This document shows, piece by piece, positions 60 to 34,294 of a stretch of DNA of 64,000 nt. Source of the DNA: Oliverunavirus OLIVR1 (Duplodnaviria; Heunggongvirae; Uroviricota; Caudoviricetes; Schitoviridae). A model generated the notes under the pieces. That model saw only the letters and a program-made list of their open reading frames with translations, made no database searches and had not been told where the DNA came from. Made by a program: the position numbers and the translations under genes. Position 1 is the first letter of the stretch. Each line of letters opens with the position of its first letter. The stretch spans positions 1 to 64,000 of the IMG/VR virus record IMGVR_UViG_2974724996_000001, one strand, 5' to 3'.

Positions 60-134
60 TGGAATGTAGCTCAATGGTAGAGCACCTGACTGTTAATCAG
101 GTGGTTCCCGGTTCGAGTCCGGGCTTTCCAGCCA
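60..134 (+). tRNA. tRNA-Asn (anticodon GTT)
   Basis: Cloverleaf read by eye: D-arm gctcaatggtagagc, anticodon stem cctga/tcagg with loop cTGTTaa, T-arm cccgg-ttcgagt-ccggg, 3' CCA encoded; one acceptor mismatch. Confidence 0.75.
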
Positions 135-135
135 A

Positions 136-210
136 TGGCTCTTAGTTCAGTGGTAGAGCGTCAGATTTTGGATCTGGATGTCCTTGGTTCGAGTCCAAGA
201 GAGCCAGCCA
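136..210 (+). tRNA. tRNA-Gln (anticodon TTG)
   Basis: Acceptor tggctct/agagcca perfectly paired, T-arm cttgg-ttcgagt-ccaag, anticodon stem tcaga/tctgg (one G-U) with loop tTTTGga, CCA encoded; lies 1 nt after the previous tRNA. Confidence 0.7.
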
Positions 211-1929: not shown

Positions 1930-2460
1930 AATACCCAGTAGAGCGACCTGCTGGGGGTAGACGATCTTCCTCTCTGCTGCCGTGGGGGAATGATCTCGGC
2001 AGGTGGGTGTCTGTTGGTTGACGCTTGGGTTCATACCCCTTGCTACGTTGGTTCAATTCCAACCCCACCTGTTTATAATTTAATTAGATGAGTAAGGCTC
2101 GTGTGGACAAGCGCGCTTTAACAACGTCCTAACCTTGTTCCCTTATAGGAGCGTGCGTCTTGCAAGCCAGTACGTTATGCGGGGGATAGTAAACCTTACT
2201 CTTCTAATTAAATTGGGTTACCCGAGTAATGACGGGTATACCCCTTGGCCTTGGTTCTGGGCCTTATACTCAACCTCGTTCTCGTAGTCTGACGGTGATC
2301 AGAATACTCCGATCCCCTGCTTAGGACATAATGGCAGGTAACCCTGAACCGGGGTCATTTGTATAGTCCAGTACATTGCTGGAAGGTCAAGGGTGGGTCT
2401 TAGCTGGCCAGCATACATGTTATGAAGTGGCTACCTCGTTCAATTCGAGGCATTTCATGT
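1930..2460 (+). other. ORF-free structured region with tRNA-like hairpins
   Basis: No credible ORF; T-arm-like hairpins ttggg-ttcatac-ccc, gttgg-ttcaatt-ccaac (+ acceptor-like caggtgg/ccacctg), cctcg-ttcaatt-cgagg; long-range inverted repeat aatttaattagatgagtaagg (2073-2095) / ccttactcttctaattaaatt (2194-2216). Confidence 0.35.
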
Positions 2461-3070: not shown

Positions 3071-3137
3071 ATCGCTGTAGCTCAGCCCGGTAGAGCATGT
3101 GCGCACAAGGTCGCTGGTTCAAATCCAGTCAGTGATG
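3071..3137 (+). tRNA. tRNA-like element, degenerate (no canonical anticodon arm)
   Basis: Acceptor atcgctg/cagtgat (one G-U), perfect D-arm gctc-agcccggta-gagc and T-arm gctgg-ttcaaat-ccagt, but only 15 nt (palindrome tgtgcgcaca) where the 17-nt anticodon arm should be; total 67 nt. Confidence 0.35.
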
Positions 3138-3236
3138 TCAATCTATTTCAAATCCATCCTGTGGATGGTAGAGGCCAGCATGTCTGATGCAGGGTTCCCT
3201 AGCGGTGCTGGCCTCGTTCTATTAAGGAAACCCTCC

Positions 3237-3524
3237 ATGATCAGAAAGCTTCTTGATTACTTTCGTAATCGTACTCACAAATATAAAGTCGGTGATCGAG
3301 TAATATTTGTCAACGACTTCGGTGTCGTCTATCTATGGACCATTAGCGAGTTGACCACTTGGGAAACCGCCTCGGGGAAGGTCCTCCCAGCCTATCATCC
3401 CATGGGTACCCAGACACCTTGGTTCCCCTATGAGGAGTCTCGTCTCCATAAAGCCACTGATCTTGATAAGATGAGCACCCCTACCGAGCTTCAAAAGAAG
3501 TATGGCTTCACCCCAACTGAATAG
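3237..3524 (+). CDS. hypothetical protein
   Basis: ORF track 3099-3524; start reset to ATG 3237 (RBS aaggaaa) because upstream part overlaps the tRNA-like element. Confidence 0.4.
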   Translation: MIRKLLDYFRNRTHKYKVGDRVIFVNDFGVVYLWTISELTTWETASGKVLPAYHPMGTQTPWFPYEESRLHKATDLDKMSTPTELQKKYGFTPTE

Positions 3525-3959
3525 TATGGTTGTAAATGAAACCTCCTCATCATGTTCAAAACAAAGCAGTTCGTCCTTCATGGAAACAACTTTTCCGTGA
3601 ACTTAAATGCTCCATCTCTGGACATGTTTTCTATGTGGCATGGGGGAATGGCTACCGTGGTTTACCTCAGTCTCATTGTTTTTGTTGTGGTGTCAAAGGT
3701 CCTTCTGCCATTCCTTCTTGCGAAGAGTGGATAGAACCTATCGGTTGAACCAAAGAAATAAACTACTCCCCGAACGAAGTGAGGGGAAAATTACTTCCAC
3801 TAATATTAATTCGTCCATGAATAATGGATGATAGCCGGGGTAGCCCAAGCACAAGGCAAGAGGTTCTGTGAACAACGGAGATAGTGTGAGTAGGGTGGCT
3901 GATCTTCCTTTCAAGGATGCTCATTCACGAGTCTCACCCCCGGCACCAATTTAATCAAA

Positions 3960-4009
3960 GTGTATCTGATGAGTCCTTATTGGACGAAACGCATTAGGGC
4001 GTCATACAC
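3960..4009 (+). ncRNA. hammerhead ribozyme, type I (stem I open), minimal
   Basis: Stem I gtgtat(3960-3965)/atacac(4004-4009); core CTGATGA 3966-3972; stem II gtcc-ttatt-ggac 3973-3985 (G10.1-C11.1 present); GAAA 3986-3989; stem III cgc-attagg-gcg 3990-4001 closed by A15.1-U16.1; cleavage triplet GUC with C17 at 4003. Confidence 0.7.
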
Positions 4010-4284
4010 ACCTAGTAGAGAGCCACTCTGTGCTGCACGCAGATGAACTATGGGCATGTGGGATTGTTACCGGTAGCAGTCCAAGGGGTATAAGCAGAAT
4101 ACTCAAAGCTCTCACTATTAACTTCAAGGAATGATAGACATGGAATATGATTATTCTGAATATGGTTTTTGTTATGTGTTTCATAAACATAAAGTAGTCT
4201 TCATTTGTAGTCGTATAATTACAGAAGGATATCTATCCGCAGGTAGTATTCAATATGAGCAAGACACATTAGGAGAATAATATT

Positions 4285-4518
4285 ATGTCTAATGAACTTA
4301 CGTTAACTGAGCACCGTCAAGAATACATACATGCTAAACGTTTTTACGAAGAGGCAAACGTAAATAAACTAACGCCTCACGTAGCAAAGCATGAAGCACG
4401 GCTTATGGAGTATCATGCACTTTCCATTGTACATTGGGAATGGCGTAATACACCTCTTCCTATCTCGAAAGCAGACTTCCTTTCGCTTAAATCTTTGCAA
4501 GATAAAGCAGGTTTGTAA
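4285..4518 (+). CDS. hypothetical protein
   Basis: 77-aa ORF, RBS taggag upstream. Confidence 0.5.
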   Translation: MSNELTLTEHRQEYIHAKRFYEEANVNKLTPHVAKHEARLMEYHALSIVHWEWRNTPLPISKADFLSLKSLQDKAGL

Positions 4519-4583
4519 GGAATAACATTACTTAAGTAATCCTTATATAGATTATTGTGCATATATTTTTTGGAGACAAATAA

Positions 4584-4662
4584 CCAAGGGTAGTTCAACT
4601 GGTAGAACCCCGGGTAGGTAGCTCCTATCTGGTATATGGAAGTTCAAATCTTCCCCCTTGGG
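4584..4662 (+). tRNA. tRNA-like element, anticodon unassigned
   Basis: Perfect acceptor ccaaggg/cccttgg, D-arm gttc-aactggta-gaac, T-arm ggaag-ttcaaat-cttcc; 29-nt middle lacks a canonical 5-bp/7-nt anticodon arm (best: ggtag-gTAGCtc-ctatc). Confidence 0.4.
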
Positions 4663-34148: not shown

Positions 34149-34162
34149 TCCCCTGTTTCATA

Positions 34163-34263
34163 ATTGAGTGGCAGAGTGGCTTAATGCTGACGCGAAGGAA
34201 GACTGGATGGGTGAGCTACGCCTCTATACTCGCCAGCCGTGGGTTCAAATCCCATCTCAATTT
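34163..34263 (+). other. tRNA-like element (acceptor aattgag/ctcaatt plus T-arm gtggg-ttcaaat-cccat), 101 nt, too long for a canonical tRNA
   Basis: Seen in sequence; the 70-nt region between acceptor and T-arm has no canonical D or anticodon arms. Confidence 0.3.
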
Positions 34264-34294
34264 ATTACCATACTAATCACAAGGACATTATGTC

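Follow-up and report, generated by a model that had tools for sequence, protein, structure and literature searches.

Conserved non-decoding tRNA-derived RNAs in the early region of phage OLIVR1

Cloverleaf RNAs with a shrunken anticodon arm are known from the vertebrate nucleus, where the mascRNA/MALAT1 and MEN-beta 3' elements lie inside longer transcripts and are excised by RNase P and RNase Z as small, non-aminoacylated RNAs resembling transfer RNA (tRNA). In the tRNA-microRNA (tRNA-miRNA) transcripts of MHV68 and in engineered tRNA scaffolds, the tRNA body acts as a processing or stability handle for a foreign hairpin located at or beside the anticodon arm. Plant mitochondrial t-elements, some of them without an anticodon arm, are described in PMC5499578 (citing Forner et al. 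2007) as RNase P and RNase Z signals for mRNA ends. Phage regulatory RNAs matured by host RNase P have also been reported, namely the C4 RNA of P1 and P7, the CI RNA of P4 and the M3 RNA of phi80 (PMC5499578), and phages such as T5 encode tRNAs that escape tRNA-targeting defence, their anticodon stem or loop being the part that is changed (PMC10264068, PMC11464382, PMC11555353, PMC12445682). Here, we describe a window of 64,000 nucleotides (nt) from Oliverunavirus OLIVR1 (positions 1 to 64,000 of IMG/VR record IMGVR_UViG_2974724996_000001, the whole stretch analyzed), in which three elements, at 3071-3137, 4584-4662 and 34162-34263, combine a tRNA body with a missing or aberrant anticodon arm. 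Those at 3071 and 4584 each belong to a conserved family of tRNA-derived RNAs that do not decode.

The closest parallel is provided by the t-elements, which resemble the OLIVR1 elements in being degenerate tRNAs that keep mimics of the acceptor and T arms (PMC5499578). The OLIVR1 elements share with them an acceptor/T-arm module without a functional anticodon arm and an intergenic location in co-oriented units. However, t-elements are organellar, usually more degenerate, often improper in the D arm and devoid of a self-complementary substitute for the anticodon arm, whereas the OLIVR1 elements are near-perfect tRNAs save for one arm. The Rfam mascRNA-menRNA family gave no match here, and there is no sequence relationship to it. 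The MHV68 and engineered scaffolds resemble the 4584 element and its 120-nt relatives, but they are eukaryotic viral or synthetic and their payload is known. The escape tRNAs of T5 and other phages are, like the OLIVR1 elements, phage-encoded and located in early or accessory regions; they still decode and replace the cleaved host tRNA, whereas the OLIVR1 elements have no usable anticodon. The C4, CI and M3 RNAs are hairpin-like and have no T loop, in contrast to the full tRNA bodies of OLIVR1. In the literature searched on phage tRNA-like decoys, anticodon-less tRNA-likes and tRNA-like elements of N4-like phages, no description of such elements was found.

Seven tRNA-like elements, all on the + strand, intergenic and in the same orientation as their neighbor genes, were detected in the window by the Rfam tRNA model (RF00005, gathering score of 29 bits). 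The elements at 3071-3137 (52.3 bits, E = 2e-8), 4584-4662 (43.8 bits) and 34162-34263 (34.5 bits) all exceed the gathering score and exhibit a 7-base-pair (bp) acceptor stem, a D arm and a 7-nt T loop, and their E-values place the resemblance to tRNA far beyond chance. None of the three has a canonical anticodon arm, that is, a 5-bp stem and a 7-nt loop with the anticodon at the standard distance. As an internal standard of what a normal tRNA looks like in OLIVR1, we took the canonical pair at 60..210, made up of tRNA-Asn(GUU) at 60-131 (72.6 bits) and tRNA-Gln(UUG) at 136-207 (63.6 bits), and the remaining two elements are a tRNA with an odd anticodon loop at 40274-40347 (Rfam span, 47.2 bits) and a weak element with a CAU loop at 2001-2071 (29.4 bits). 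The T-loop TTCAAAT is common to 3071, 4584, 34162 and 40274, the Asn and Gln tRNAs carrying TTCGAGT. A CCA after the discriminator is encoded in Asn, Gln and 40274 and is missing from 2001 (TTT), 3071 (TCA) and 34162 (ATT), while the discriminator of 4584 is trailed by CCT, one base off CCA; in 3071, 4584 and 34162, CCA could be added post-transcriptionally.

The sequences of the three elements are identical across OLIVR1, OLIVR2 and OLIVR3 and therefore do not reflect a sequencing slip. A BLAST search of GenBank phages returned matches to them only in these three genomes, whose near-identity thus leaves no comparative power. The window matches the first 64 kb of Agrobacterium phage OLIVR1 (NC_055840), an N4-like member of the Schitoviridae, at 100% identity. 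Besides tRNA-Asn and tRNA-Gln, the GenBank record lists 4584 as a "tRNA-Thr" and 40274 as a "tRNA-Val"; 3071 and 34162 lack RNA annotation there, and short hypothetical protein genes overlie 2001-2071 and 34162-34263. The paper describing OLIVR1 counts four tRNAs and leaves the aberrant ones unmentioned (PMC10132094).

An earlier note, made from the letters of this DNA alone, had proposed a tRNA body at 3071-3137 with a palindrome for its anticodon arm, an element at 4584-4662 without a canonical anticodon stem-loop and a third one of 101 nt, all with the T-loop TTCAAAT. These descriptions agree with what we found: the Rfam score of 3071 comes with zero loop nucleotides, 4584 folds with a 9-bp stem and a 5-nt loop in the third arm, the third element spans 102 nt, and the T-loop is present in all three. 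Normal cloverleaves with 7-nt anticodon loops had been named as the outcome that would overturn the observation, and no tool assigns an anticodon to 3071 or 34162. Two other suggestions of the earlier note fared worse. The three elements do not make up one class, being three separate families with different histories, and the fallback that non-canonical tRNAs had been missed by hand-folding does not apply, as the hand fold was right and decoding is unsupported.

The element at 3071..3137 (+ strand) comprises a 7-bp acceptor stem, a 4-bp D stem and a 5-bp T stem, and ends in a discriminator G. In the Rfam alignment, a 5-bp anticodon stem (UGUGC/GCACA) closes zero loop nucleotides, and ARAGORN did not call the element. 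When compared with ordinary phage tRNAs, its sole gap corresponds to exactly the 7 anticodon-loop bases, so that the stem halves TGTGC and GCACA abut; the identical anticodon stem is found in a tRNA of Aeromonas phage phiAS5, there around a CTTCTAA loop. The two abutting halves form the perfect 10-nt palindrome TGTGCGCACA at 3098..3107. Perfect 10-nt palindromes are not enriched in the window (53 observed against about 62 expected), and what is unusual about this one is its position and its persistence in orthologs, not the palindrome as such. The element lies 47 nt from the upstream stop and 99 nt from the next start, taken as the better ATG at 3237. The annotated start of the downstream gene gp099 (3135; gene 3135-3524) overlaps the end of the element and is probably an annotation error, the likelier start being the in-frame ATG at 3237, which is preceded by an AAGGA ribosome-binding site. 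A small tRNA intron was considered and rejected, because 3071 has too few nucleotides and not too many, and because tRNA introns in bacteria belong to group I and run to hundreds of nucleotides.

Six orthologs of this loop-less element were found in metagenomic N4-like relatives (contigs L092, L139, L140, L141, L142 and L146), which makes seven sequences with OLIVR1. L092 was recovered by a spacing-constrained pattern scan of metagenome contigs. A protein search with gp099 gave 17 relatives, and the ten of their contigs that were retrieved represent early regions of N4-like type, near which gp1 and gp2 homologs are encoded; L139, L142, L140 and L146 contain Rfam tRNA matches of 67-69 nt, uncalled by ARAGORN, and L141 was added by a scan of our own demanding full pairing. 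The viral-contig scan yielded no gp099 relatives, and the genome-contig scan yielded no loop-less pattern. An upstream flank is shared by OLIVR1 and L142 and another by L140, L141 and L146, whereas L092, L139 and L142 have a downstream flank in common; because of these flanks and of the synteny, the orthology does not rest on the fold alone. No orthologs of the three OLIVR1 elements were present at the syntenic sites of Ochrobactrum phage ZX86, the closest named relative, or of Rhizobium phage RHph_I1_6. ZX86 has no annotated tRNAs, and its early region (L090 369-439) holds a weak, aberrant tRNA-like sequence of 30 bits with a shortened acceptor stem and an oversized anticodon loop.

The seven loop-less sequences have 5 distinct acceptor stems, 6 distinct T stems and one compensated change in the D stem, and all their stems are fully paired but for one cell. 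Among the five sequences of 67 nt, 98.8% of the cells are paired, compared with 32-58% when the partners are slid by 1-3 columns, and seven pairs have changed on both sides; none of 500 shuffles matched any of these measures. The variable columns fall at paired positions in 26 of 29 cases (Fisher p = 9e-5). The G-U pairs of the family are found only on the + strand, and the constraint therefore acts on RNA. Independently, the RNAalifold consensus is a cloverleaf with just a 3-bp stub at the anticodon position. Four phages have TGTGCGCACA in place of the anticodon arm; in L140 the segment reads GCGTGCACGC, in L141 it reads CGTTGCAACG, and L146 has a mini-hairpin of 12 nt there, so that three different perfect 10-nt palindromes, each with zero loop, occupy the same place (palindrome pairs were counted on the ungapped alignment, MAFFT having shifted that of L140 by one column). 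Conservation is mosaic, as in L092 the protein of the HU-like gene is 51% identical and the element DNA 90% identical, and in L140 gp1 is 92% identical and the element 63% identical. The 3071 element is thus under selection for its fold at the RNA level.

The dyad symmetry, perfect in three sequence versions and extending to central bases that an RNA hairpin cannot pair, is what an action of the palindrome in DNA would account for, the 10-mer then being a protein-binding, cleavage or recombination site inside a tRNA-like gene. We consider this explanation very improbable, since the G-U pairs of the surrounding stems make sense only in + strand RNA, no DNA-binding protein would accept three sequences that are unrelated to one another, the site is taken in L146 by a mini-hairpin that is not palindromic, and the genome shows no excess of such palindromes. 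An integrase attachment site was rejected as well, given a lytic phage, a tRNA sequence with both of its halves and a constraint that operates on RNA.

The element at 4584..4662 (+ strand) has normal acceptor, D and T arms, and its minimum-energy fold (z-score = -3.7) is a cloverleaf whose third arm is a stem of 8-9 bp with a 5-nt loop. At 4610..4632, this extended arm reads CCGGGUAGG-UAGCU-CCUAUCUGG, with 9 bp and a loop of 5 nt. The element is located about 190 nt upstream of gp092, the homolog of N4 gp1, at 65 nt from the upstream stop and 31 nt from the next start, and relatives hold other tRNA or tRNA-like genes in this slot just upstream of gp1. The OLIVR1 arm, GGUAGG-UAGCU-CCUAUC, corresponds to GAUAGG-UAGCU-CCUGUC in L092 and to GACAGG-UAGCU-CCUGUC in L140, in both of which it adjoins a T arm and the whole tRNA-shaped RNA measures about 120 nt. 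None of the six inner pairs is lost, one of them passing through a U-A / U-G / C-G series, and the loop is invariant. This element, too, is under selection for its fold at the RNA level, and the 120-nt RNA with the UAGCU arm cannot decode. The arm motif RTAGGTAGCTCCTRTC gave 44 matches in viral contigs, about the number expected by chance, and none of them was in a tRNA-like context. A stretch GAGCUAC in 34162 (34213-34219) is exactly complementary to GUAGCUC at the tip of the 4584 arm (4618-4624); this was noticed post hoc and may be due to chance.

Another possibility is that the elements are working tRNAs with unusual anticodon arms, or variants that evade anticodon-arm nucleases. ARAGORN and tRNAscan-SE each give 4584 an anticodon, phage tRNAs are known to alter anticodon stems or loops to escape nucleases (PMC10264068, PMC12445682), and such an explanation could fit 40274 and 2001, in which loops of 6-7 nt are retained. 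The two programs disagree, however, as the element is a tRNA-Thr for tRNAscan-SE (according to GenBank) and a tRNA-Ala(AGC) for ARAGORN, and both calls rest on an over-long stem and a non-standard geometry. The arm is 3-4 bp too long for ribosomal geometry, A34 and U37 would be atypical for a bacterial tRNA, and the orthologs of about 120 nt have the same arm; furthermore, 3071 has no loop at all and 34162 no anticodon hairpin. Working tRNAs are hence a highly unlikely account of these elements.

The element at 34162..34263 (+ strand) is a tRNA-shaped sequence of 102 nt with a perfect 7-bp acceptor stem, a D arm of class II type and a T arm. In place of a 17-nt anticodon arm it has 45 nt, in which neither Rfam nor folding indicates a stable hairpin. 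It starts 13 nt after the stop of the Pnk gene and ends 31 nt before the start of the exonuclease gene. The search for orthologs found none. The Pnk-exonuclease junction of L149, whose Pnk is 91% identical, holds a canonical tRNA-Ser(GCU) and a canonical tRNA-Arg(UCU), both with CCA, and in ZX86 and L150 the junction consists of only 49-60 nt with no tRNA. The class II D arm of 34162 is like that of the L149 Ser tRNA, and the rest aligns loosely to a stretch resembling a discriminator, CCA, a spacer and an Arg-like tRNA, the anticodon stem of which no longer pairs. Judging from this modest sequence similarity, 34162 is plausibly a younger derivative of a tRNA-Ser/tRNA-Arg pair that has kept the tRNA shape alone. 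A 30-aa hypothetical gene (34184-34276) is annotated within the element and is probably an annotation error.

These features of 34162 are also the ones that a decay of tRNAs into functionless pseudogenes, visible only since search models tolerate indels in the anticodon region, would leave behind: an element without orthologs, at a site where a relative has two real tRNAs, with an unpaired anticodon-stem remnant. The search tools are biased toward such defects, and ZX86 has none of the elements. Nevertheless, the derived loop-less state of 3071 is common to all seven sequences and is accompanied by compensatory changes in every stem, and in 4584 it is the aberrant arm itself that is conserved. 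Covariation refutes pseudogenes for these two. Even in 34162, a 7/7 Watson-Crick acceptor stem joins what appear to be parts of two tRNAs, which argues that the tRNA shape has been maintained. Taken over all the elements, decay is improbable in our judgment, and the pseudogenes suggested by the earlier note fail at 3071 and 4584, where conservation and covariation contradict them, and may still apply at 34162, a tRNA-shaped remnant of uncertain status.

We favor a reading in which the elements are non-decoding tRNA-derived RNAs within early and middle operons, excised by host RNase P and RNase Z in the manner of t-elements, and we hold it with a confidence that is evenly balanced. Processing signals for these two enzymes were among the three readings offered by the earlier note, and of the three this mechanism fits best. 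Bacterial RNase P and RNase Z recognize the acceptor/T-arm half and the elbow of their substrates, RNase P requiring no more than that half, and an encoded CCA blocks RNase Z. The elements keep the recognized parts, lack an encoded CCA and sit between co-oriented genes, which makes excision by the host enzymes the most economical explanation. The analysis establishes the architecture, the co-oriented intergenic placement and, for 3071 and 4584, the selection on the RNA fold, whereas we infer that the elements are transcribed, that the two enzymes cut them and that the RNA set free has a role. The elements at 3071 and 4584 would be transcribed within early operons and that at 34162 within a middle operon, on the same strand as the flanking genes; each would fold into the acceptor, T-arm and D-arm part seen by the tRNA-processing enzymes of the host. 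RNase P would then generate the 5' end and, no CCA being encoded, RNase Z would cleave directly behind the discriminator base. The long phage transcript would thereby be divided at defined positions, as plant mitochondrial mRNAs are by t-elements, and a small, stable tRNA-shaped RNA barred from translation would be freed.

Several observations weigh against this proposal. The absence of the elements from the same positions in ZX86 indicates that they are dispensable for this type of phage. The invariant D arm and the self-complementary 10-mer exceed the needs of a cut site and suggest a function of the released RNA. The relatives of 4584 in L092 and L140 end in G-CCA, as compared with G-CCT in OLIVR1, and an encoded CCA is more in keeping with a stable, mature RNA than with a site for RNase Z. 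Moreover, the full pairing of the loop-less family is in part a matter of ascertainment, given that orthologs were found with a tRNA covariance model and that the scan yielding L141 required pairing, and the sequences sample about four independent lineages, from metagenome assemblies throughout.

The excess of conserved features over what a cut site needs, including the D arm, the T loop and the perfect palindrome, leads to the main rival explanation, in which the released RNA acts in trans as a decoy or sponge for host factors that bind tRNA, such as a defence toxin or a processing enzyme. Having no anticodon, such an RNA would neither enter translation nor be cleaved by anticodon nucleases, and the 10-mer could pair two molecules into a symmetric double tRNA. 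The stub of the 3071 monomer is predicted to be unstable (-0.2 kcal/mol), and a 10-bp intermolecular duplex of the palindrome is predicted with a free-energy change (ddG) of -16 to -18 kcal/mol; the canonical tRNA control reaches -10, and the dimer is thus only about 7 kcal/mol better than the control. Acceptor stem and palindrome turn over fast between phages whose gp1 is 92% identical, as in an arms race, and the elements lie in the early region, the usual site of anti-defence genes. Transfer RNAs are the target of many defence systems, against which phages are known to deploy tRNAs of their own (PMC10264068, PMC11464382, PMC11555353, PMC12445682). On the other hand, no such RNA decoy is described in the literature searched, the known anticodon nucleases read the anticodon loop that is missing here, and the neighboring proteins give no clue, Pfam having detected no domain in eight small neighboring proteins and Pnk. 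We regard a decoy as unlikely, though it is compatible with processing and the two may coexist.

In a more specific and doubtful form of this idea, the loop-less family would be a novel type of phage RNA that joins two tRNA bodies stem-to-stem through the 10-mer, and the dimer or the monomer would neutralize, early in infection, a host factor that recognizes tRNA shape, with the UAGCU-arm family as a second effector, built on a tRNA scaffold. If this were true, the host target could be, for example, a tRNA-targeting immune nuclease, and a double tRNA would stay invisible to the ribosome; together with the short-arm viral tRNA-likes described below, the two families would then form a widespread class of non-decoding phage tRNA mimics.

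Phage tRNAs are usually explained by codon supply or by the replacement of tRNAs that defence has destroyed. Non-decoding elements kept by selection add a third use of the tRNA fold by phages, as a processing handle, as a trans-acting mimic or as both. Annotation pipelines miss such elements, assign arbitrary isotypes to them (Thr, Ala, Val) or overlay them with spurious short protein genes. As the elements are short, conserved and easily mutated in a cultivable phage-host pair, their role is directly testable.

Viral contigs were scanned for a common motif of D arm and T arm whose spacing left no room for a full anticodon arm. The scan returned 82 loci, 81 of them scorable, among which at least 6/7 acceptor pairs were present in 59, 5/5 T-stem pairs in 71, and at least 6/7 acceptor pairs together with at least 4/5 T-stem pairs in 56; CCA was encoded in only 3/81. 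The middle segments comprise loop-less palindromes (CACATGTG, GCGATCGC), hairpins of 3-4 bp with loops of 3-5 nt (CCG-GAUA-CGG in L094, for instance) and short stubs. Three families found in multiple contigs are near-invariant while one or both flanks have been replaced, and divergent family members have compensated changes in the acceptor stem. One family is flanked by a terminator on one side and by the ribosome-binding site of a terminase small subunit gene on the other. Many of the short-arm contigs (L004-L085; L033, L017 and L004 are examples) are apparently from gut metagenomes. That a spacing-constrained search recovers elements of this kind by the dozen from unrelated viral contigs makes it probable that the phenomenon is general.

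Other structured RNAs accompany these elements. A type I hammerhead ribozyme is predicted at 3960..4009 (+ strand; RF00163, 31.4 bits, E = 7e-5), below the gathering score of that family (31.4 vs 34). It has the core CUGAUGA...GAAA and the cleavage triplet GUC, and its three stems, of which stem I is open, measure 6, 4 and 3 bp. It is kept in L143 (1287-1337) and L144 (1736-1793), where the core is invariant, stem II covaries and stem III is variable but paired (3, 5 or 8 bp), and this comparative evidence outweighs the small shortfall in score. A conserved hammerhead between 3071 and 4584 suggests an early region built for RNA cutting by more than one kind of device. Just before it, at 3834..3948 (+ strand), an RNA of tRNA shape has an acceptor stem of 7 bp (GCCGGGG/CCCCGGC), an encoded ACCA and, where a normal T arm would be, an expanded arm (z-score = -2.1); it ends about 10 nt upstream of the hammerhead. 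In OLIVR3, an offset of +77 bp was considered as a tRNA and rejected, being a tandem duplication of non-coding sequence; the duplication (OLIVR1 3798-3874 / OLIVR3, contig L003, 3875-3951) immediately precedes the RNA at 3834-3948.

A tRNA-shaped RNA of about 203 nt adjoins the loop-less element in six relatives and has a canonical T arm, an encoded ACCA and covarying acceptor stems. It was located in L092 (932-1133, reverse strand), L139 (1431-1635), L141 (8791-8993), L142 (3208-3413), L143 (723-925) and L146 (11072-11273). It has no match among Rfam families and was not seen in OLIVR1. As identities for the OLIVR1 elements, tmRNA and YrlA were rejected, giving only weak Rfam matches, on the canonical tRNAs.

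The two remaining tRNA-like elements of the window have anticodon loops. That at 2001..2071 (+ strand), with CAU as its anticodon and no CCA, has two U-U mismatches in an extended anticodon stem according to its predicted fold; a near-identical ortholog is present in L140 (3326-3396) and related ones in L139 and L142. The GenBank gene for a 34-aa protein (1990-2091) overlies it. In the tRNA at 40274..40350 (+ strand, CCA encoded), the anticodon region exceeds the normal length by 3 nt, with a 6-nt loop, CCCUAA, on a stem of 6-7 bp. The loop contains CUA, and ARAGORN assigns a 4-nt anticodon, GenBank a tRNA-Val. The ortholog in L150 (10810-10883) is canonical, with the anticodon UCA of opal-suppressor type, and 40274, which immediately precedes the virion gene block, may belong to a lineage of suppressor tRNAs.

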